Source: a virus (taxonomy: Duplodnaviria; Caudoviricetes). Taken from it: a stretch of 36,052 nt of DNA. The first letter of the stretch is position 1. Every line of letters begins with the position of its first letter. Below the pieces are notes generated by a model. That model saw only the letters and a program-made list of their open reading frames with translations, had not been told where the DNA came from and made no database searches. Below, one piece after another: positions 13,786-35,355 of this stretch. The translations under genes were made by a program, and so were the position numbers. Location: positions 1-36,052 of IMG/VR virus record IMGVR_UViG_3300031950_000004. One strand, written 5' to 3'.

Positions 13786-14217
13786 TTACAAATTTTTAAG
13801 CAGTCGATCTATGGCTTTGGTAAAGGTTTCTATTATTTCTGGTTCACCCTTCTGCATGACGTCTGCCAACCTCCACCAACGTTTAGCGTGATACCAAACT
13901 TGACCTTTGCCTTGTGCATCACCGATAACATATTTAGCGTATTGCACGTTTGTACCCACCCAACCAATTTTTCTATCGGATTCCACATAGGACTCTGCAT
14001 CAGGATTGCCCCGACCTTTTAGCACGGCAAGACTTTTTCCCAGACGCATTGTCCTGCGTGTAGGACTTTTTGCATCTGATGGGTAAGGTGGATAAGGTGG
14101 TACAAGCTCTAACGCTCTGTAAACAGCAGCTTCCATGCCTTGATGGAGGATTTCTCGAAATGTGGATTCGGACAGTTTAAGTGCTTGTTCGATATCTACA
14201 ATTATCTCAACTTGCAT
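13786..14217 (-). CDS. HK97 gp10-like / virion morphogenesis protein
   Basis: RTMRLGKS and VGTNVQYAKYV motifs; ATG 14217 overlaps the MuF stop; start could extend to 14241. Confidence 0.65.
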   Translation of the reverse strand: MQVEIIVDIEQALKLSESTFREILHQGMEAAVYRALELVPPYPPYPSDAKSPTRRTMRLGKSLAVLKGRGNPDAESYVESDRKIGWVGTNVQYAKYVIGDAQGKGQVWYHAKRWWRLADVMQKGEPEIIETFTKAIDRLLKNL

Positions 14218-16102
14218 TGAAAGTTTCTTCCCACTCGGCAATAATTTTATCTATCTTTCGGCGAGTTTGCTCCGCAAGCAGTTTACCCCATTCTTCCATC
14301 TCTTTTTCTGGATTGCCACTTAGATGTAGCCAATCCGCACTGTCCGATCCAGGCACTACAACATAGTAACCGTTTTCACCCATATAAACAATAGTATCCG
14401 ACATTGACTTTTTAACTCCTTTCTGCACTAAATGATACCTTCCATTTTTAATTACTCTAACACGATCCACAGCAGTTCCTAAAACTACAAATTCTTGCTC
14501 GTGGTGACAACCAAAACCCGTATAACACGATCCAATAATGCGAGATCGTGGAATTTTTGCACAAACTATTATAAATCCGAAATTAGAAGCGATACTCATG
14601 CTAAAACTCCAGGATTCCATAGCATTTCCATGATACTCTACCACCTCTCCTGGTGGAAATTTAGCCAAGTCCTCATCAGAAACATTAAACCCTCGAAAAA
14701 GCGTAACATATTCTGGCAAAATATCCTTTAGGGTCTTCTGGGAATACTTATACATTTCCCGTAGAAATTCTTCTTGATGGGTTATGATTTGAACTATCGC
14801 TTGTGAGTATTTATTAACAATGAACTCCAATAAACTTTTTTCGGTGGTCAAAGTTTGCATAGCGTCTGATTTAATCTCTTGCAAAATTTCTTCTATTATC
14901 AAACTTCCACCAAAATCCGTAAGCTGACCCCCATAAAAATTCAGTTCTTCAGGGATTATCTCGAATAAAATAAATTGAATCCTTTCAATATTCCAATTTC
15001 CCTTTTTGTCTGTTACACCTCTCACATCGAACTGAAAACTTAAAGAATTTTTAAACTTTTCAATTGCAGCTTTTTTCAAACTCTCCAAACCATCCCCAAT
15101 TATTTCCACATACTTGGAGTTTTGCCATTCTGGCCACCACGTTTTGAAAATTTTATGTGCTAAATATTGTAAAGCTATAGACAGAGTCTGATCATTGGAG
15201 GAAATAGCCCAAGCTTTAATCCATGAATTAAACACATAAATGGGTTTTCTAATCCCTTGGGATTCTAAAATCCTGCTAAACTGTAAAGAAATAAAACTTT
15301 TAAGTCTTTGAGCAAGCATCCAGTGCTCTGGAATAGATTTTTCTTGGTCAATTAAATTTCTGAAAAATTTATCTAAATCTTTCCTTAGCTTAACATTTTC
15401 CTCAGAGACTTTATCGAAAAGTAAACTTAGATTGGATTCTTCTGGCGGAAAAGCACTTTTACGGAGAGGATCCTCCAAAACCGCAGGATCTGGAACCGCA
15501 GGTAAAGCCTCCAAAGCTGGTGCAACTCTATAAAGATCTGGATTTACCGCTGGACGTATAGCGCAACGACAATTTACATGTGCTGGAGGATCAGCGACAT
15601 CTACACTAAATTGCGCCATTTTTTCCACCACTTTGCCTTCCAAACCCCCACACACTGGACAAACCTTCTCGTCCATAGCCGTGAACCACTTTTTCCCTTG
15701 CACCCATGGAGTTTTGTCCCAGACTCGCAGATTGGTCTGCGCATAAATCCGCGTAGACTCCGTCATAGCTATTTTTTTAGCTCTGTCTGCGGAGAAAATC
15801 CCTGCTTGCTGGATGCGTTTTACCAGCCAAGAGTGTGGATGCCCTCCACGGATGTACTCATCGAAAATCTCTCTAAGAGATTTTGCCGTGCTGACATTAA
15901 TGCCAGACACCATCTCAAAACCGTATGTGGCTATAAACTCTGGCAGATTCGGGTCGAATTGGTGCAAATTCACTCCGACGGCTGGATTGGTTAATTGCAA
16001 AGACAACTTTATTTGCTTCTCCAAAACCCCCATTTGTCTTTGGAGATCACTCCAAAGTCTTTCTAACTCTGACTGCCAGAATTCCTCCCAAGTTTTGCTC
16101 AT
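14207..16102 (-). CDS. MuF/SPP1 gp7-family minor head protein fused to a C-terminal ADP-ribosyltransferase-like domain
   Basis: N-terminal RAKKIAMTE, KKWFTAMDEKVCPVC, PPAHVNCRC (MuF); C-terminal LFRG...ESWS...HEQEFVV (R-S-E ART pattern). Confidence 0.85.
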   Translation of the reverse strand: MSKTWEEFWQSELERLWSDLQRQMGVLEKQIKLSLQLTNPAVGVNLHQFDPNLPEFIATYGFEMVSGINVSTAKSLREIFDEYIRGGHPHSWLVKRIQQAGIFSADRAKKIAMTESTRIYAQTNLRVWDKTPWVQGKKWFTAMDEKVCPVCGGLEGKVVEKMAQFSVDVADPPAHVNCRCAIRPAVNPDLYRVAPALEALPAVPDPAVLEDPLRKSAFPPEESNLSLLFDKVSEENVKLRKDLDKFFRNLIDQEKSIPEHWMLAQRLKSFISLQFSRILESQGIRKPIYVFNSWIKAWAISSNDQTLSIALQYLAHKIFKTWWPEWQNSKYVEIIGDGLESLKKAAIEKFKNSLSFQFDVRGVTDKKGNWNIERIQFILFEIIPEELNFYGGQLTDFGGSLIIEEILQEIKSDAMQTLTTEKSLLEFIVNKYSQAIVQIITHQEEFLREMYKYSQKTLKDILPEYVTLFRGFNVSDEDLAKFPPGEVVEYHGNAMESWSFSMSIASNFGFIIVCAKIPRSRIIGSCYTGFGCHHEQEFVVLGTAVDRVRVIKNGRYHLVQKGVKKSMSDTIVYMGENGYYVVVPGSDSADWLHLSGNPEKEMEEWGKLLAEQTRRKIDKIIAEWEETFNAS

Positions 16103-20317: not shown

Positions 20318-20758
20318 CTATTTGATTTTAGACAGCAGTGCTTGTGTTAGAGGATCTGTGCGAACTTTCACGTCGTTTACACCAAGAGTCTGCAAAAACT
20401 CTAAAATTTTGATCAACTCCTCCCGATCTTCTGGGATTCGGATTCCCCAAGCTTTCTTGGGAGTCGTCCCCAGAGCATCTGTGTAATACTCCATCCACTT
20501 GAAACCGTGCTGCTTCAGGGTTTCCTTGATCGAATATGTGTCACCACGACTAATTACGATCCAAGCTCCTCCAGAGAACATGTTGTTGATGACTTCTGCC
20601 GCATAGGGCTCCTCTTTCTTGGAAGCCCTGTAGCACTCGGGGCAGACCCTGTTGGTCTCATACCATCGGATTTTTCGCTCGCGCTCTTTGCTGGGTCCAA
20701 AGAGTTCTACGGTGTGCTCCCCGTGTCCACAACTGTATTTTACTGTGTACTTAGCCAT
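20318..20758 (-). CDS. Putative Zn-binding early protein, paralog A (CGH...CPEC plus GDTY.IK..LK..GF.W domain)
   Basis: SD GAAAGGAG; about half of the residues identical to 20999-21448 by manual alignment. Confidence 0.85.
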   Translation of the reverse strand: MAKYTVKYSCGHGEHTVELFGPSKERERKIRWYETNRVCPECYRASKKEEPYAAEVINNMFSGGAWIVISRGDTYSIKETLKQHGFKWMEYYTDALGTTPKKAWGIRIPEDREELIKILEFLQTLGVNDVKVRTDPLTQALLSKIK

Positions 20759-20998: not shown

Positions 20999-21448
20999 CT
21001 ATTCTCCATCTTTTGCGTTCTGCAAGAATTTCGGGATGGGTTTAACATTAATTTTCAATTCCTGAATTCCGAGTTCTTTCAAAAATTCACAAATTTTGAC
21101 CAGATCATTTCGATTTTCTGGGACTGGGATCCCCCAACCTTTCTTGGGGTTCGCTCCAAAGAAATCACTGCAATACGTGACCCAGAAGAATCCGTTTTTC
21201 TTAAGATTCTCCTGGATGGAGTATGTATCTCCATTTGTGATAACAATCCAAGCTTCTCCCCCTACAAAATAGTTTGCTATAATTTCGGCTTGATAGGGTT
21301 CAGTCTGCTTTTTGGATCGGTAGCAATCAGGACATAGGAAGTTCTCCTCATACCATTTTAGCTTGCTGTTCTTTTGCTGGCTGGTTCCTGTTACCTCCAC
21401 CTTTCCCTCTCCGTGTCCGCATGCATATCGGATTTTGTATGTTGCCAT
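20999..21448 (-). CDS. Putative Zn-binding early protein, paralog B
   Basis: CGH...CPDC, GDTYSIQENLKKNGFFW; SD GAAAGGAG; own promoter and terminator. Confidence 0.85.
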   Translation of the reverse strand: MATYKIRYACGHGEGKVEVTGTSQQKNSKLKWYEENFLCPDCYRSKKQTEPYQAEIIANYFVGGEAWIVITNGDTYSIQENLKKNGFFWVTYCSDFFGANPKKGWGIPVPENRNDLVKICEFLKELGIQELKINVKPIPKFLQNAKDGE

Positions 21449-25035: not shown

Positions 25036-25439
25036 AGCTGGTAGTCTTGGATCTTGGTATAAATACAGGTATAGCGTGGCTTCGGAAGGACGACAAAGTG
25101 GTTTATTATAGGACTGCTTGCGTCCCTTTACAGGAATCCACTAAAGTCGTCCTTCCAGACCCAGAGGTTTTGTACGTGATCGAAGATTTTCCCGTTTGGA
25201 AATCCGTGAAATACGTTAAAACGTGGATAAAAGACCTTTTGGAAAACTTTGGAGTAAATACTTTGTGGGTCAGACCTGACGTGTGGATGCATTCCATGCG
25301 CAGGTACACAGAGCACTTGCCCAAACTCGGAACCCCACATGAGCGAGATGCTTTGTGGCTTGGGTTGTACACTTTAGAGTTGCTTTGCCAAGAGAAAAAA
25401 GGAGTGCTAAAGTGGGACATAAGAGCCTCGCAATTTTAG
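25032..25439 (+). CDS. RuvC-like Holliday junction resolvase
   Basis: VLDLGINTGIAW, VIEDF, HERDAL: RNase H-fold acidic motifs. Confidence 0.78.
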   Translation: MKLVVLDLGINTGIAWLRKDDKVVYYRTACVPLQESTKVVLPDPEVLYVIEDFPVWKSVKYVKTWIKDLLENFGVNTLWVRPDVWMHSMRRYTEHLPKLGTPHERDALWLGLYTLELLCQEKKGVLKWDIRASQF

Positions 25440-26215
25440 GGTCTGGTGCTTCCTCTGCGGTAGTGGCTTATGTTTTTCGACAGCTTTTTCCGCAAATAGA
25501 CATTGACATTTGGACAATGCGGAGAGAGGTTGTGGTTTACCCGTTTACCAGCATCGAAAGCGAATACTTCGAAAAAAAGTTTCCCTTATTGCCGAGAATA
25601 CTCTGGAAAATAAACTGGACGGTATCTCCAGAAAACTACAAAAAGAATCGCTGGGGAGATTTGCACCATCTGGTTGGAGATTCCAATTTGTCTAAAGAGT
25701 ATCCCACAGGTCAAAGATATTACTTGGAGCCACAAATTCTGTGCAACTGGCTGATAGGGATATCCGATGTGCATTGGAAACTCTTAGCCAGCCCATTTAC
25801 CCAAGAAGAAATCCAGAGTCTGACGGAAAAATACACATGGGTTGTGCAAACTTTTCCCAATCCAAAACATGCACAACCAGTCTGTTGGGAATGGATTGTC
25901 GCATTTCCAAATGGAAACTGTTCAGAGGAGAAAACTTTGTGCCTAACCCACGGAGGAACTCCACCTGAAACTCGATGCTGGGAATACGGAAAAGTCCGAT
26001 TCCAAGAATATCGTATCCATTATGAACCACCGATTTTCCCTGATGAACTTTATCGAATAAAGTTCAAAATCTTGCATCCTAGCACAAAGCCGATTGCTCC
26101 CGTGGACGATCTTTTTCCGAACCTTATTTACATTGGCAGATATGCCTTGTGGGATTTTTCTTTTTCCATCGAATCTATACCAGATTTGCTCTACGAAATA
26201 TTAAATACTGATTAA
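25412..26215 (+). CDS. Putative flavin/dinucleotide-binding oxidoreductase-like protein
   Basis: Rossmann-like AILGSGASS at the N-terminus and NLIYIGRYALW at the C-terminus; GTG start 25412 after SD AAGGAG. Confidence 0.65.
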   Translation: MGHKSLAILGSGASSAVVAYVFRQLFPQIDIDIWTMRREVVVYPFTSIESEYFEKKFPLLPRILWKINWTVSPENYKKNRWGDLHHLVGDSNLSKEYPTGQRYYLEPQILCNWLIGISDVHWKLLASPFTQEEIQSLTEKYTWVVQTFPNPKHAQPVCWEWIVAFPNGNCSEEKTLCLTHGGTPPETRCWEYGKVRFQEYRIHYEPPIFPDELYRIKFKILHPSTKPIAPVDDLFPNLIYIGRYALWDFSFSIESIPDLLYEILNTD

Positions 26216-26225
26216 GGAGGTTACC

Positions 26226-26537
26226 ATGGACGAAACGAAAGAATTACAAATGTTCGATTCTTATTGTACGCAAGGAAGAGAAATCTTCGTGCGCAAAAAC
26301 AAAGAGTACGGTGGGTCTTACCACTGGATGGGTCTAATTGGAGTGGTAAGCGAGATCGCTGGGATTTCCATGCGGTTGGTAAGTGCGGTTTTCCAGAATT
26401 TTGGTAACATCGAACCCAATCGAGATTCTGTAAAAGACGCTTTGCTGGATTTGCACAACTATGCCAACATGGGTTTAATTTGTCTGGAAAACGATAACAT
26501 TCTGGGAGAATTTCTGCAAGGAGCTAAAAAACGATGA
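26226..26537 (+). CDS. DUF1599 / nucleotide-modification-associated domain 1-like all-alpha protein
   Basis: RKNKEYG and SVKDALLDLHNYA match the KNxDYG ... DtlxDlxNYA pattern; SD AAGGAGGT. Confidence 0.75.
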   Translation: MDETKELQMFDSYCTQGREIFVRKNKEYGGSYHWMGLIGVVSEIAGISMRLVSAVFQNFGNIEPNRDSVKDALLDLHNYANMGLICLENDNILGEFLQGAKKR

Positions 26538-27337
26538 AGCCGAAAATTTTAGTCCACCAAGAACCTTATCGGAACAAAATCCTGCGATGGTTCGCAGGAG
26601 TTACCGCAGAAGTGCATCTGATTAGCATGACGCCCAATCCCAAAAAGCTTATCGCTCTTGGAATGCGCGCCTACACTGGACACTACGAGACAGACATCCC
26701 AGAGGACTTGGTAGAACCGTTCTTTAGAGATTCCAGAACGGCTTTGGCGACACCTTTGGAATGGGTAAATTTTGTTTTCCTCCTTAAAGACGTTCCAAGG
26801 TTTTTCACCCATCAGCTTGTGCGGAACCGAATTGGGGTGTCGTTTGTGCAGCAATCGACTCGCAACAAAACGGAGCAGCTTTACTTCGATTTCCTTTTGC
26901 CACCGTCTTATGTTCGAGCAGGATATAGCTTGGAGAAAAACTTGGATTTAAACCAGCTAATACAAGCCAATCTTGCAGCCGCCAGAGTGATTATCGACGC
27001 TTACCATACCGAGCACTTGTCCGCTGAGGATGCTAGATTCGTTTTGCCGCACAATTTTTTGACTCACATTTACTGGCAGACAAATTTGGTCGCTCTTAAT
27101 AGAGTGTTCGATAAACGTTTCTGCTGCCAGGCGGAGAAAACGGTATGGCTCCCAGTCCTGTTGCAGATTATGCGATTATTGCAATCGCAGTGTCCAGGTT
27201 TGGAACAGGTTTTGTCTTCTCCGTTTTTGCGTGGCGAGAGTTGTGGTTATACCGCAAGCTTCGACAAACCATGTGTATGGAAAGGAAAGACTCGGGAGGA
27301 GATCCTGAATGAATCGATATCTGATTCTGGATCTTGA
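26534..27337 (+). CDS. thyX: ThyX-like flavin-dependent thymidylate synthase homolog (non-canonical motifs)
   Basis: TPLEWVNFVF, RFFTHQLVRNRIGVSFVQQSTR, AEDARFVLP, KRFCCQAE. Confidence 0.82.
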   Translation: MKPKILVHQEPYRNKILRWFAGVTAEVHLISMTPNPKKLIALGMRAYTGHYETDIPEDLVEPFFRDSRTALATPLEWVNFVFLLKDVPRFFTHQLVRNRIGVSFVQQSTRNKTEQLYFDFLLPPSYVRAGYSLEKNLDLNQLIQANLAAARVIIDAYHTEHLSAEDARFVLPHNFLTHIYWQTNLVALNRVFDKRFCCQAEKTVWLPVLLQIMRLLQSQCPGLEQVLSSPFLRGESCGYTASFDKPCVWKGKTREEILNESISDSGS

Positions 27338-29114
27338 AACGACTGGATTGGATTGGTGGAGGGAGAAAATCGTAGGCATAGGCATAAGGTTGGAGCCAGA
27401 GGGTAGGGAAGAGTTTTTTCCCTACCCTGACCCTGGGTGGCTTAGGGAATACTTGCTGGAGTACAGAGATCGAGTATGGATCGGACACAACATTAAGTTC
27501 GACTTACTCTTTATCCATTATCCTCCAGAGGTTGTTTACTCTTTGCAAATAAGAGATACCATGGACATGGTGCACTTGTACGATTCGAGGCTTTCTAAAT
27601 CTTTGGTAGAAGTGGAGAAAGAGTTCCTCGGATCGGAAACCAAATTCTGGCACTTGCATCAGGAAAATAAGCGGAAAATAAAATCTTGGGACTTGGATAG
27701 AGTAAAAGAATACTGTTTGAATGATGTGCTGATAACTTGGAACGTGTTCAGAAAATTAGAACCAGAATTGGAAAAACTGAAAGTTTCCCATATTTTCCGC
27801 AAAAATATGGAATTGCTCAAGGTGTTATATGAAATCGAATACTTTGGATTCCTTTTCGACAAAGAGGAAGCAGATCGCAGTATCAAAATTTTGGAAGAGA
27901 ATCTAAAATTGCAGGAAGAGCAATTTTTCCAAAAAGTCGGTGTAAGGTTCAACTGGCGTAGCCATAAGCAGTTGAGTTATTACGCTTATGATTACCTTAA
28001 TTTTCCCAGACCTGAGAACCCTTTTTTGGATCCGATTACAGGGGAAGACTTGGGTCGCAATCCAGAATCGCGCAAATATAACAGCACTATGGTGTCCAGT
28101 TCCATACTGGTCGGCAAAGCAAAACACCCCTGGGCTTTGGACATCCAGTTCTTGCGGGAAACGGACAAGGCAATAGATTTTATCCAGCGTCTTAGCAGTT
28201 TAACCGACGACAAAAACTTTCTGCACTCTTCTTTTAACATTAGTGGAACCCGAACGGGTCGAATAAGTTCTAGTAGACCAAATTTGCAAAACATCATGAG
28301 TGGGATGCGAGGGTTTTTTTTGTCTTCTTCGTTTATGGATGCAGAAGCTGTGGAAGCTATCTTGAACCGCAGCCAAGCTTACAATGTGCGCAGACTTTTT
28401 ATCGCTCGCCCAGGGTACAAAATTGTGAGCATCGATTACAAACAGATGGAAATGCGCATGTTTGGAATTGTTTCCAAAGATCCCCATATGCTGGAATTTT
28501 TACAGGCAGGCACAGATATCCACAGTCAAATCGCGCAAAGGGTCTGGGGCAAAGCTGACGAAATAACTCGCGACTGGGCTAAGCAGATCGGGTTTGGCTT
28601 GATCTATGGCATGACGATGGGGTCGTTGCGCTTTCGGCTAAACCTTACCCTGGAGGAAGCCAAAAAAATAACTTCTGATTATTGGAACACTTTTCCAACC
28701 ATTCGACCCTGGCTTTTCGGAGTTGTAGAGGAGTGTAAAAAGAAAGGTTATTTGCGATACTGGTCGGGTAGGATTTGGAGAGAGGACAAAGTGGAAAAAA
28801 TGTATCGTGGAGCCAATGCGCTTATCCAGGGAGGATGTGCAGATTTGCTTTCCGTTGCAGTGCTACGGGTGAACAATTACATCAAGCGCAACAATCTGGA
28901 TATTCGAATAGTAAATCTAGTGCACGACGAGATAGTTTTCGAAATGCGAGAAGAGGATTTCGAGCACATACCGAAAATCGCTAATATCATGCAAGTAGAG
29001 GACTTGTTTGGGATACCTTTTATCGTAGATGTGAAAATCGGCAGATCTCACGGAGAATTGGAGTCGTATGGAAAATCTGATACAGGAACTGGAAAACAGA
29101 TTTTTTCACAATAG
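27309..29114 (+). CDS. polA: Family A DNA polymerase with 3'-5' exonuclease
   Basis: ExoI LDLETTG, ExoII GHNIKFD, ExoIII YCLND; TGRISSSRPNLQNI, motif A DYKQMEMR, motif B RDWAKQIGFGLIYG, motif C VHDE. Confidence 0.97.
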   Translation: MNRYLILDLETTGLDWWREKIVGIGIRLEPEGREEFFPYPDPGWLREYLLEYRDRVWIGHNIKFDLLFIHYPPEVVYSLQIRDTMDMVHLYDSRLSKSLVEVEKEFLGSETKFWHLHQENKRKIKSWDLDRVKEYCLNDVLITWNVFRKLEPELEKLKVSHIFRKNMELLKVLYEIEYFGFLFDKEEADRSIKILEENLKLQEEQFFQKVGVRFNWRSHKQLSYYAYDYLNFPRPENPFLDPITGEDLGRNPESRKYNSTMVSSSILVGKAKHPWALDIQFLRETDKAIDFIQRLSSLTDDKNFLHSSFNISGTRTGRISSSRPNLQNIMSGMRGFFLSSSFMDAEAVEAILNRSQAYNVRRLFIARPGYKIVSIDYKQMEMRMFGIVSKDPHMLEFLQAGTDIHSQIAQRVWGKADEITRDWAKQIGFGLIYGMTMGSLRFRLNLTLEEAKKITSDYWNTFPTIRPWLFGVVEECKKKGYLRYWSGRIWREDKVEKMYRGANALIQGGCADLLSVAVLRVNNYIKRNNLDIRIVNLVHDEIVFEMREEDFEHIPKIANIMQVEDLFGIPFIVDVKIGRSHGELESYGKSDTGTGKQIFSQ

Positions 29115-32804: not shown

Positions 32805-33227
32805 ATGTTTTACAAGGATCAAGACAAAATCTACGAAATAGCTTTTATTCGGGACATATATCCAGAGGAAGCAGCTTTGCCATATTATGTCTGTCCTTCT
32901 GGCAGTCCTATTCCTGATGGTTACGTTACCCTTAAGAAAATTCGGCGATATAGCAACGACGGGTTTGTATATCTCTACCCAGTGGGGGACAATGAGGATG
33001 GGGACTTCCTCGTTTGCATGAATGAGGACGATGGGGAACAGGAAAACTTTGAGGCATGGCTTGAACGATATGAACGTGCCCTAAACGGAGCACTCTACGA
33101 ATACACAATTAAGCAGTATTCTCCGCATGGAGGGATTTGGGTACTGGATGAGGAAACCAAATCCATTGACAGTCCACCTGGATGTCCTGTGGAAGTACAC
33201 AAAATTGAGGTTTTGATTGAAAAATGA
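32805..33227 (+). CDS. Acidic hypothetical early protein
   Basis: 140 aa, SD GAAAGGAG. Confidence 0.8.
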   Translation: MFYKDQDKIYEIAFIRDIYPEEAALPYYVCPSGSPIPDGYVTLKKIRRYSNDGFVYLYPVGDNEDGDFLVCMNEDDGEQENFEAWLERYERALNGALYEYTIKQYSPHGGIWVLDEETKSIDSPPGCPVEVHKIEVLIEK

Positions 33228-33230
33228 ACG

Positions 33231-33264
33231 AAAAGAGGGAGTCTCTACCCAAAGAGACTCCCTC
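33231..33264. terminator. Intergenic 12-bp hairpin (minus-strand terminator or mRNA processing/stability element)
   Basis: gagggagtctct/agagactccctc perfect stem, 6-nt loop, A4 on the left side. Confidence 0.55.
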
Positions 33265-33277
33265 GGAGGAGAACCAA

Positions 33278-33529
33278 ATGGAAATAAACGTAATCGGACT
33301 GAGATCATTTTGCAACAAAACTTACTCGAATCAGGAATTTGTCAATAAAGTTTTTGTCGAATGTGACTTCTTGGGTTGTACGTTTTCCAAATGTACTTTT
33401 ATGGAAGTCTATTTCATCCAGTGTCGTTTCGATAGTTGCAGTTTTTACGACAATGACGGATTCTTTTACACCTGGCAAACACAATTCGAAAACTGCAGTG
33501 GAGATCTAGGAAAAATCCGCAGTCTATAG
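33278..33529 (+). CDS. Short pentapeptide-repeat-like protein
   Basis: FVNKV-FVECD-FLGCT-FSKCT-FMEVY-FIQCR-FDSCS-FYDND five-residue periodicity; start moved to ATG 33278 after SD GGAGGAG. Confidence 0.7.
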   Translation: MEINVIGLRSFCNKTYSNQEFVNKVFVECDFLGCTFSKCTFMEVYFIQCRFDSCSFYDNDGFFYTWQTQFENCSGDLGKIRSL

Positions 33530-33759: not shown

Positions 33760-34680
33760 ATGAGTCACGAGATTTTCGGAGAAAGGTTCTGGGGGCATCG
33801 CAAGTCTGCCTGGCATAACTTAGGAGAAGTTTTCCAGGAATCGTTAACCGCTACACAAGTCCTGGAGCGTGTTCAATTGACCAAACCCATCTCTTTTGAG
33901 AAATGGGACGGGTTTTTCATATCTCCGGATCAGCAAAATTTTTTAGCGCAGAATAAATCAGTTATTGTCCGTCGCTCTCCTGATGGGGATGAAGTCCTCG
34001 GACTGGTCAGCAAAGAGTTCCAAATTTTAAGTCCGGAGTACATCGGACACATTTGGGACTCTGTTCTAGGGTGGGAGGTAGAAACCTTATTCTTCACTCG
34101 CAACCGAATGGTAATAACCAGTCGGTTGCCACGGGTGGAATTGCATCCAAATGATTCGAGTGAATGGAACTTACACGCTATTCTGGATTTCCCTTATCAA
34201 CCTGGAATTCCAATTCAAGCACGGATCGCTCCAGTGAGGGTGGTTTGCATGAATACTTTAGCTTCTTCTAGGCTGGAAGCGACCCTAAACGTGTCTGCCA
34301 GACACAATTCCAAAGAAATTCGAAAAATTGAAGTATGGCTAGACTCCTGGGCAAGAAGTTATCACAATACCGTAAGAGAACTGGAAGCAATTCTGAATCT
34401 GTTCGCAAAAACTCCGATAAAATGGGAGGAAATTTCAGAGAAGTTTTTCGCGGAAGTTTTCAAGCAAAACTTCGAAAAACGATTAGAAAATTTCAACCGC
34501 ATGCAAGTTTATGGAACATCCGTGGAAACAGGATCCATGCTCGGTTGGCTAAACGCTATAACGGAATACGCCGATTGGGCTAATCGACACAAGGAAACTG
34601 AACTAACTACCTTGTTTGGACACAGATACAATTTAAAACAAAAAGCATTCGAATTTGCTACCAATGTAGCAATTGGATAA
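33760..34680 (+). CDS. DUF932 (TIGR03299-like) phage/plasmid protein
   Basis: AWHNLG near the N-terminus, PVRVVCMNTL, NAITEYADW; SD GAAAGGAG. Confidence 0.85.
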   Translation: MSHEIFGERFWGHRKSAWHNLGEVFQESLTATQVLERVQLTKPISFEKWDGFFISPDQQNFLAQNKSVIVRRSPDGDEVLGLVSKEFQILSPEYIGHIWDSVLGWEVETLFFTRNRMVITSRLPRVELHPNDSSEWNLHAILDFPYQPGIPIQARIAPVRVVCMNTLASSRLEATLNVSARHNSKEIRKIEVWLDSWARSYHNTVRELEAILNLFAKTPIKWEEISEKFFAEVFKQNFEKRLENFNRMQVYGTSVETGSMLGWLNAITEYADWANRHKETELTTLFGHRYNLKQKAFEFATNVAIG

Positions 34681-34696: not shown

Positions 34697-34735
34697 AAAC
34701 CAAACAGAGTCCTTAATCAGGACTCTGTTTGGTTT
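34697..34735. terminator. 17-bp perfect hairpin between the convergent early and lysis transcripts
   Basis: aaaccaaacagagtcct-taatc-aggactctgtttggttt; overlaps the endolysin stop codon. Confidence 0.8.
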
Positions 34736-35355
34736 AAAAAATCTGCTTTAGCGTACAAAGCGATTTTGCACCAGCCATTCTCCGTGGAAATAACTTCCAC
34801 TTTAGCTTGTTCAGATAAGCTTCCAACAACAGGAGCAGACAGAGATGGATTCAATCTCACGTTTAGAGCAGGAACGCTTACTACAGCATGCCCTGCATAA
34901 CCATCTTTAAGTCCTTTTGAAGAAGCGGAAATCGCTTCGAAAAACGGAGAAGGATCTATTTCTCCCTTGTTGTAAGATCCAGGGGCTCCAGGTACACGCA
35001 ATTCAAAATGCAAATGGGGTCCCGTGGAAAATCCCGTGTTACCAGACAAGCCAATCTGTTGGGATTGGGAAACTTTTTGTTGTACAGAGACCTGAATTTT
35101 GCTGAGATGCGCGTACAGAGTCCAAAACCCATCGTGACGGAGCAGAATAAAATAACCATACCCTTTCTCGTCGTATCCAGTTTTCTCCACATTACCCTCT
35201 GCGGAAGCTAAAACTGGAGTCCCTACAGGTAAGCCGAAATCTAAGCCATTGTGCCCAGGTTTTCCGAATCGAGAGTAAATTTGCGGATTGGCTCCGAACA
35301 GTTGTGTAACGGGAAACTTACCTGTGAATGGGAGACGTAATTTAATGGATTCCAT
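34717..35355 (-). CDS. Endolysin: M23 metallopeptidase plus C-terminal SH3b domain
   Basis: HNGLDF, YAHLS, STGPHLHFE (M23); LNVRLNPSLSAPVVG...NGWCKI (SH3b). Confidence 0.93.
   Translation of the reverse strand: MESIKLRLPFTGKFPVTQLFGANPQIYSRFGKPGHNGLDFGLPVGTPVLASAEGNVEKTGYDEKGYGYFILLRHDGFWTLYAHLSKIQVSVQQKVSQSQQIGLSGNTGFSTGPHLHFELRVPGAPGSYNKGEIDPSPFFEAISASSKGLKDGYAGHAVVSVPALNVRLNPSLSAPVVGSLSEQAKVEVISTENGWCKIALYAKADFLNQTES

Follow-up and report, generated by a model that had tools for sequence, protein, structure and literature searches.

Thymidylate synthases rewired for the production of modified phage nucleotides are already known, and have been shown for enzymes of the ThyA fold. These comprise the dCMP hydroxymethylase of T4, the synthases of hydroxymethyl-deoxyuridine (hmdU) nucleotides and the 5-hydroxy-dCMP synthase of RB69 and DLP3, in all of which a thymidylate-synthase homologue feeds the phage polymerase. 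Modified thymidines also occur in the Pbunaviruses: F8 and 14-1 contain derivatives of 362 Da and 390 Da, respectively, which account for about a quarter of T and lie in a TG context (Yee et al., bioRxiv 10.1101/2025.03.31.646159). The same preprint notes that a search for familiar modification genes would have missed these bases, and its section on the F8 and 14-1 thymidines assigns no genes to them; the accessible portions of recent Pbunavirus papers and of a meeting report likewise name no genes for the modification. Bacillus phage SP-15 makes 5-(4,5-dihydroxypentyl)uracil before DNA synthesis; its authors proposed a hydroxymethyl-dUMP synthase in a pathway that is unproven, and a title cited in the same source describes labelling of the base from ribose (PMC5977210). 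Here a four-gene locus is described on a tailed-phage contig of 36,052 bases, IMG/VR record IMGVR_UViG_3300031950_000004, the whole of which is termed the window. A small flavoprotein (OX), a Nmad1/DUF1599-like protein and a divergent ThyX, hereafter the variant ThyX, precede a family A DNA polymerase (PolA). The first three genes form a conserved phage module, whose function is probably DNA base modification. Neither a counterpart built on the ThyX fold and paired with its own flavoprotein nor any chemistry for this gene set was found in the literature searched, most subscription journals lying outside it.

The four genes occupy the plus strand in the order OX (25412-26215, with a GTG start; the mechanical gene caller placed the start at 25355), DUF1599-like protein (26226-26537), variant ThyX (26534-27337) and PolA (27309-29114). 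They are separated by a gap of 10 nucleotides, an overlap of 4 and an overlap of 29, and a purine-rich ribosome-binding site precedes each open reading frame (ORF), so that the tightly packed arrangement reported in the initial annotation was confirmed. The absence of ThyA-type, glycosyltransferase, PurZ and queuosine genes, also remarked there, held in Pfam and PHROG scans of the window's 38 main ORFs, which detected no ThyA, glycosyltransferase, deoxynucleoside monophosphate (dNMP) kinase, PurZ or queuosine gene. The locus differs from the ThyA-type modifiers both in the fold of its synthase, which is unrelated, and in the absence of the dNMP kinase and known transferases that characterize them.

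Linkage of the trio was surveyed in the best 80 of 346 variant-ThyX loci in IMG/VR, some of which are near-duplicates and two near-copies of the window, and in 120 of about 190 control stretches bearing the ordinary ThyX motif HQLVRHRIA. Within 7 kb of ThyX, OX is encoded at 59 of the 80 loci (33 of the 40 with full flanks) and at none of the 120 controls, and Nmad1 at 64 of the 80 as opposed to two of the 120; both accompany the variant ThyX at 57 of the 80, the locus counts not being phylogenetically independent. The 21 loci without a nearby OX include nine with OX elsewhere on the contig, a situation found in four of the five contigs that are at least 90% complete. A second collection, drawn from a metagenome and genome scan and including the window's contig and two near-copies, gave a matching picture: OX is present in 26 and a Nmad1-like domain in 25 of the 29 loci of at least 9 kb. 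The polymerase of the 57 full modules is DnaE in 46 and PolA in eight. Accessory genes are varied: a HAD phosphatase in 24, a short-chain dehydrogenase/reductase (SDR) in 14, a deoxyribosyltransferase-like protein in ten, one methyltransferase family in nine and a glycosyltransferase in three, with none of the tested accessories in 20. The window module is a bare core, devoid of the accessories tested. Three close relatives carry glycosyltransferase genes in or adjoining the module; in the PolA clade, a glycosyltransferase, a methyltransferase and a dUTPase-like/HAD fusion are seen in or beside it (L011, 3775-7490; L012, 5365-8551; L013, near 5669).

Among cultivated phages the module is common and is accompanied by DnaE as polymerase; examples are Pbunavirus, Wifcevirus and actinophages, PBI1 among them. 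The window's variant ThyX matched 166 phage records, and Gordonia phage Ranch, Mycobacterium phage PBI1, Pantoea phage Kyle and Burkholderia phage WTB all have DnaE near ThyX and encode an OX homologue. As in the window, the Pbunaviruses F8 and 14-1 and the Wifceviruses combine an OX homologue, a ThyX of the same clade and a Nmad1-related domain adjoining a phage polymerase; they differ from it in possessing DnaE, small intervening genes and a fusion of the Nmad1-like domain to a HAD phosphatase, which in F8 and 14-1 adjoins DnaE. In 14-1 the variant ThyX is ORF59, OX is ORF65 and the HAD-Nmad1 fusion is ORF57. The same three core families are recognizable in an actinophage block of oxidoreductase, phosphatase, methyltransferase, FabG-like, DnaE and ThyX-like genes (PBI1, Ranch, Xenia2), which has DnaE in place of PolA and additional accessory enzymes. 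The genes of this block have been annotated by name in genomes (PMC11385102), and no report on the DNA chemistry of these module-bearing actinophages was found in the literature searched. Conserved linkage, which the initial annotation had put forward as a check, is thus borne out: the trio stays together, with a polymerase, in unrelated phages and not beside ordinary ThyX.

The second line of evidence is provided by the active site of the variant ThyX. Like canonical ThyX, the protein has a Thy1 domain (Pfam PF02511, E 2e-25, 90 bits against a cut-off of 24.8); it falls short of NCBIfam TIGR02170 (66.1 bits against a cut-off of 87.9), bears a C-terminal Cys motif and reads RNR...S in place of RHR...S. 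By reference to Thermotoga maritima ThyX, H53, H59, H79 and Y91 are replaced by L71, W77, N98 and N111, whereas the dUMP-activating S88, R90 and R174 are retained as S108, R110 and R195, and R147 is also retained. This pattern extends to the family: in 85 variant sequences compared with 108 controls, H53 is found in 0% versus 90%, H59 in 0% versus 98% and Y91 in 0% versus 83%; H79 is mostly lost, as opposed to 100% in the controls, which were selected on it, and S88, R90, R147 and R174 persist. A rough pattern applied to 78 further ThyX sequences found the H53/H59 motif in none and RHR in three. The description of this ThyX as atypical is accordingly upheld at defined active-site positions. 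H53 is presumably the folate-stacking residue of ThyX. In the canonical enzyme the substitution Y91A cuts carbinolamine consumption more than 100-fold, free formaldehyde is accepted via a flavin carbinolamine, and R174 activates dUMP (Bou-Nader et al., PMC8316439). A quick maximum-likelihood tree, in which one further divergent row was left unplaced, groups all 36 variant rows, including those of F8, 14-1 and PBI1, on one branch (SH-aLRT 100) and locates the window protein within a PolA-linked subclade with a support of 98.

A trio of this composition might simply supply dTMP: a drifted ThyX would make dTMP, OX would re-reduce its flavin and Nmad1 would serve as a dUTPase, the Pbunavirus modification arising from other genes. 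A block of dUTPase, ThyX and DUF1599 genes in Asgard archaeal viruses has been read in this way (bioRxiv 10.1101/2021.07.29.453957), 14-1 and RHph_TM61 have a single ThyX, none of the five module-bearing genomes tested encodes ThyA, and a few OX- or Nmad1-linked ThyX retain RHR (L244, L251). The loss of Y91 and the clustering of methyltransferase, glycosyltransferase and SDR genes in the module speak against it, as does the lack of OX near any of the 120 ordinary ThyX. Moreover, a whole-contig search of the first 50 controls uncovered OX in two, each with a second, divergent ThyX besides the ordinary one (G036, L114 2063-7233; G013, L060, L141, L220); one of these divergent proteins belongs to the variant clade and the other is the unplaced long branch. 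Because these two phage contigs keep an ordinary ThyX as well, the divergent ThyX beside OX is probably not the dTMP supplier, and this observation together with the empty control set renders a dTMP-supply function decidedly improbable. In G036 the same gene run also contains a dCMP deaminase, a kinase-like gene and DnaE.

The nature of OX was deduced from profile links and fold. The window protein has no match in Pfam, PHROG or NCBIfam, and direct searches with its sequence returned near-copies only. It bears the motifs ILGSGASS close to the N-terminus and IGRYALW close to the C-terminus. A fold predicted from the single sequence was discarded, as its predicted local distance difference test score (pLDDT) was 34.6; an AlphaFold2 model built from a 54-row alignment reached a pLDDT of 87 and a predicted template modelling score of 0.85. 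The highest VIA Z scores of this model are for prenylcysteine oxidase (15.2), UDP-galactopyranose mutase (15.1 and 14.4) and renalase (14.1), with root mean square deviations of 3.4-3.7 over 234-262 residues; Foldseek returned D-amino-acid oxidase and UDP-galactopyranose mutase with E values of about 1e-8. Because the top structural matches are tied (the first three), the fold names no substrate, and the UDP-galactopyranose mutase Pfam family is matched by none of the 54 OX family members. The model suggests a small flavoprotein of the glutathione-reductase-2 (GR2)/amine-oxidase/UDP-galactopyranose-mutase fold. The N-terminal dinucleotide motif GxGxxG, which reads GCGPAG in the family consensus and GSGASS in the window, and the whole-chain fold match (Z 13-15) place OX among the GR2-type flavoproteins that bind flavin adenine dinucleotide (FAD), with putative FAD binding. 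Profiles link OX to gp58 of PBI1 and to Pbunavirus proteins. It belongs to a large phage 'oxidoreductase' family with 1,185 representatives at 50% identity (E<=1e-10), the PBI1 protein matching 126 actinophage records and the Kyle protein 362 records, 292 of them from Pseudomonas phages. In one close PolA-clade relative (L010, 5106-6699) two tandem OX paralogues precede Nmad1 and the variant ThyX, which hints at two flavin steps.

The Nmad1/DUF1599-like protein, which contains a KNKEYG motif, matches Pfam PF07659 weakly (E 0.025, 15.4 bits, below the 25-bit cut-off). Its assignment is backed by phrog_1485 (E 3e-10), by an ESM Atlas value of 0.95 and by its family, eight of whose 49 members match DUF1599 with a best E of 1.6e-7. 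HHalign (84.6%) further connects it with the C-terminal domain of the HAD protein of Pbunavirus type, and its closest PDB match is weak (E 0.21). Relative to the all-alpha NTP pyrophosphatases of MazG-like type, DxxxDxxNY is conserved and the first acidic motif is mostly basic in the DUF1599-like family. Homodimer prediction gave a score of 0.79, with a best control of 0.00, a pLDDT of at least 83 and at least 97% of contacts shared between runs; in a calibration of this score, the mark was reached by 20 of 30 solved pairs and one of 23 single chains. The protein is predicted to be helical and homodimeric, and a role as nucleotide-pool pyrophosphatase is putative.

PolA (Pfam E 5e-69) has a 3'-5' exonuclease domain and intact catalytic motifs. 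An identity as DpoZ, the polymerase of Z genomes, was considered and rejected: the NCBIfam scores lie below their cut-offs (125.9 of 500 bits for DpoZ_1 and 33.8 of 350 bits for the other model) and no PurZ match was detected in the window. Motif B reads KQIGFG; at the position where N is usual, the four PolA-clade enzymes matched have G, S or T.

Linkage, altered ThyX residues and the hypermodified thymidines of module relatives jointly support the original interpretation of the locus as a modified-pyrimidine cassette. The chances are about even that the product of the trio is a sugar-derived thymidine analogue, substituted at C5 and made as a nucleotide, which the adjacent polymerase incorporates and which shields the genome against host nucleases. 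In the chemistry proposed here, the variant ThyX would bind and activate dUMP through the retained S88, R90 and R174. With H53 and Y91 lost, the one-carbon unit of folate would be replaced on the reduced flavin by a bulkier aldehyde, for example the phosphate of a pentose or hexose, much as ordinary ThyX can use formaldehyde. C5 of dUMP would then attack, and transfer of a hydride would yield a 5-(polyhydroxyalkyl)-dUMP, the pentose version of which corresponds to the 362 Da nucleoside; ring closure in place of reduction would produce a C-glycoside, whose hexose version corresponds to 390 Da. Both masses fit the proposed products exactly, as dU plus a reduced pentose chain and as dU plus hexose minus H2O. 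OX might prepare the donor or perform a redox step on the side chain, and the DUF1599 dimer might trim a competing dNTP or supply dUMP. Host kinases would form the triphosphate, PolA would incorporate it at some of the T positions, and the HAD phosphatase, SDR, methyltransferase, glycosyltransferase and deoxyribosyltransferase-like proteins of relatives would vary the side chain. That the variant ThyX attaches a sugar-derived group to C5 of dUMP by this chemistry is plausible, if slightly less than evenly favoured.

Several observations weigh against this proposal, and some of them concern the chemistry and its placement in the DNA. The authors of the Pbunavirus study describe a tetritol and a cyclic aldopentose (bioRxiv 10.1101/2025.03.31.646159), and ethers of hydroxymethyl-dU fit equally well, 362 Da being hmdU plus tetritol minus H2O and 390 Da hmdU plus pentose minus H2O: mass alone cannot separate C-C-linked products from such ethers. 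A route acting on the nucleotide pool also leaves the TG specificity of the F8 modification unexplained. The main rival is a two-stage route, in which the variant ThyX would use methylenetetrahydrofolate and either release hydroxymethyl-dUMP or trap the exocyclic methylene with a sugar hydroxyl; a polyol or pentose ether would be completed after replication in a sequence-selective manner, with OX possibly converting what is left over to T by reduction. The ether masses are close to the wording of the authors, and a post-replicative step accounts for the TG context better than nucleotide-level synthesis: in the genome halves of F8 and 14-1 that were analysed, a G follows 27% of T, in agreement with the reported quarter. 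Post-replicative modification of hydroxymethyl-uracil is established for M6, ViI and PaMx11 (PMC8989533). This route is nonetheless judged unlikely. The window's scanned ORFs include no hydroxymethyl-uracil kinase, amino-acid:DNA transferase or glycosyltransferase, and neither OX nor Nmad1 showed a DNA-binding domain; H53, which we take to stack folate, is absent from all variant ThyX examined.

Further difficulties for nucleotide-level synthesis by the trio stem from the comparison with other phages. The variant ThyX and OX of F8 are 94% and 97% identical to those of 14-1, yet the two phages have different products. Two causes of the 362 versus 390 Da difference were considered and discarded: a comparison of 33 genes from the right half of the 14-1 genome revealed neither gain nor loss, and the conserved ThyX positions are unchanged. 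The window ThyX is only about 25-30% identical to its counterparts in cultivated phages, the window OX has no direct match among them, and no dNMP kinase is recognizable in the window. A link between the module genes and a modified base was not found in the literature searched. SP-15 speaks for the proposal, but as an analogy only: its base bears a C5 polyol chain made before DNA synthesis, and the neighbours of its second, divergent ThyX (gp130) are SDR and deoxyribosyltransferase-like genes, both of which occur as accessories of the module. SP-15 was rejected as a module member, since OX and Nmad1 were not detected and gp130 matches the control profile rather than that of the variant ThyX. 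The gene run gp127-gp130 (L097, 7730-10911), with deoxyribosyltransferase-like, SDR and divergent ThyX genes together, is on sequence grounds a candidate core for dihydroxypentyl-uracil synthesis.

A TG-context signature is clear in F8 and 14-1 and weak in the window. A TG statistic computed on six-base palindromes gave deltas of 0.50 for F8 and 0.48 for 14-1 as positive controls (p about 0.004). A shift also separates 46 module loci from 67 controls (median 0.17 versus -0.02, p 6e-6), a comparison confounded by GC content and kinship. The window itself has a delta of 0.17 (p=0.08), five of six PolA-clade relatives do not exceed zero, and the GC content of controls differs from that of the variant-ThyX loci (37% against 56%). 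Avoidance of T-containing sites persists in close relatives, namely of AGCT and TTAA in L009 and of GATC in L011. These points, too, weigh against the proposal. In the window, T-containing palindromes are mildly reduced. GGCC occurs once where about 33 sites are expected, CCGG six times instead of about 69, and GGWCC is near-totally avoided, which points to host restriction at these sites. Avoidance of four-base palindromes was rejected as evidence of T modification, as avoidance of T-less sites is no less frequent in controls (90/276 versus 15/188 events). TGCA occurs at less than half the expected number in 23% of 47 module loci (L009-L086) and 0% of 69 controls, a scarcity that may be a host effect.

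The window's lineage could alternatively carry another base or group, for instance the product of flavin-dependent pyrimidine hydroxylation, later glycosylated or methylated in relatives, and this product need not match that of the Pbunaviruses. Flavin-dependent C5 hydroxylation by a ThyA homologue is documented in RB69 and DLP3 (PMC13326640), and the PolA subclade is a separate branch without the TG signature. Because GGCC and CCGG are nearly absent, C and G are argued to be unprotected in the window, and the uracil-activating R174 is retained; another base or group is on balance decidedly improbable. In favour of the main proposal, Wifceviruses, which carry the module, resist all tested restriction systems except EcoP1_I with no known protection (PMC11990801). 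Their genomes hold 30-38 EcoRI sites, and EcoRI cuts F8; since Wifceviruses keep these sites, their context or protection differs from that of F8.

The module lies in a tailed-phage setting. Pfam and PHROG scans assign head and tail genes to the minus strand and a replication arm to the plus strand, comprising a helicase, a PD-(D/E)XK nuclease, a Sak4-like ATPase, the trio with PolA, and a primase. All four sequencing runs that cover at least one fifth of the window, one of which is possibly the source itself, are labelled hot springs metagenome, and no RNA run figures among the runs listed as holding window DNA. Promoter and terminator scans gave no excess over shuffled sequences (9 versus 18.8 and 10 versus 11.7, respectively). 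A MuF head-morphogenesis protein (14207-16102, minus strand) has a C-terminal region that matches the DRAT ADP-ribosyltransferase family, barely over the cut-off (E 2e-6); judging from this match, the fusion may act on the host as an enzyme delivered with the virion. Two neighbouring minus-strand ORFs (20318-20758 and 20999-21448) have in common an N-terminal match of 50 residues to phrog_16123 (E 9e-13 and 7e-9) and are probably paralogues. Downstream of the module lie genes for a pentapeptide-repeat protein (33224-33529) and a DUF932 protein (33760-34680) on the plus strand, and for an M23 peptidase with an SH3 domain, likely the endolysin, on the minus strand (34717-35355).

Few therapeutic Pseudomonas phages are used as much as the Pbunaviruses. 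Modification of their thymine protects them against restriction and makes them susceptible to END nucleases (bioRxiv 10.1101/2025.03.31.646159). A named three-gene candidate makes the origin of this modification testable and would allow modified genomes to be flagged by sequence. To this picture the window adds a minimal, PolA-coupled form of the module. The most far-reaching version of the proposal, which is advanced tentatively, is that the variant ThyX is a folate-independent C5-alkyltransferase joining a sugar phosphate to dUMP by a flavin adduct: it would catalyse the so far missing first step towards the sugar-bearing thymines found in Pbunavirus and in more than a thousand diverse phage lineages, and the PolA-linked trio from hot springs would represent a minimal, probably thermostable system to produce and replicate DNA of this kind. 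If true, a new ThyX chemistry, the transfer of a sugar through a C-C bond, and a polymerase accepting its product would be of interest to enzymology and to the synthesis of modified DNA.

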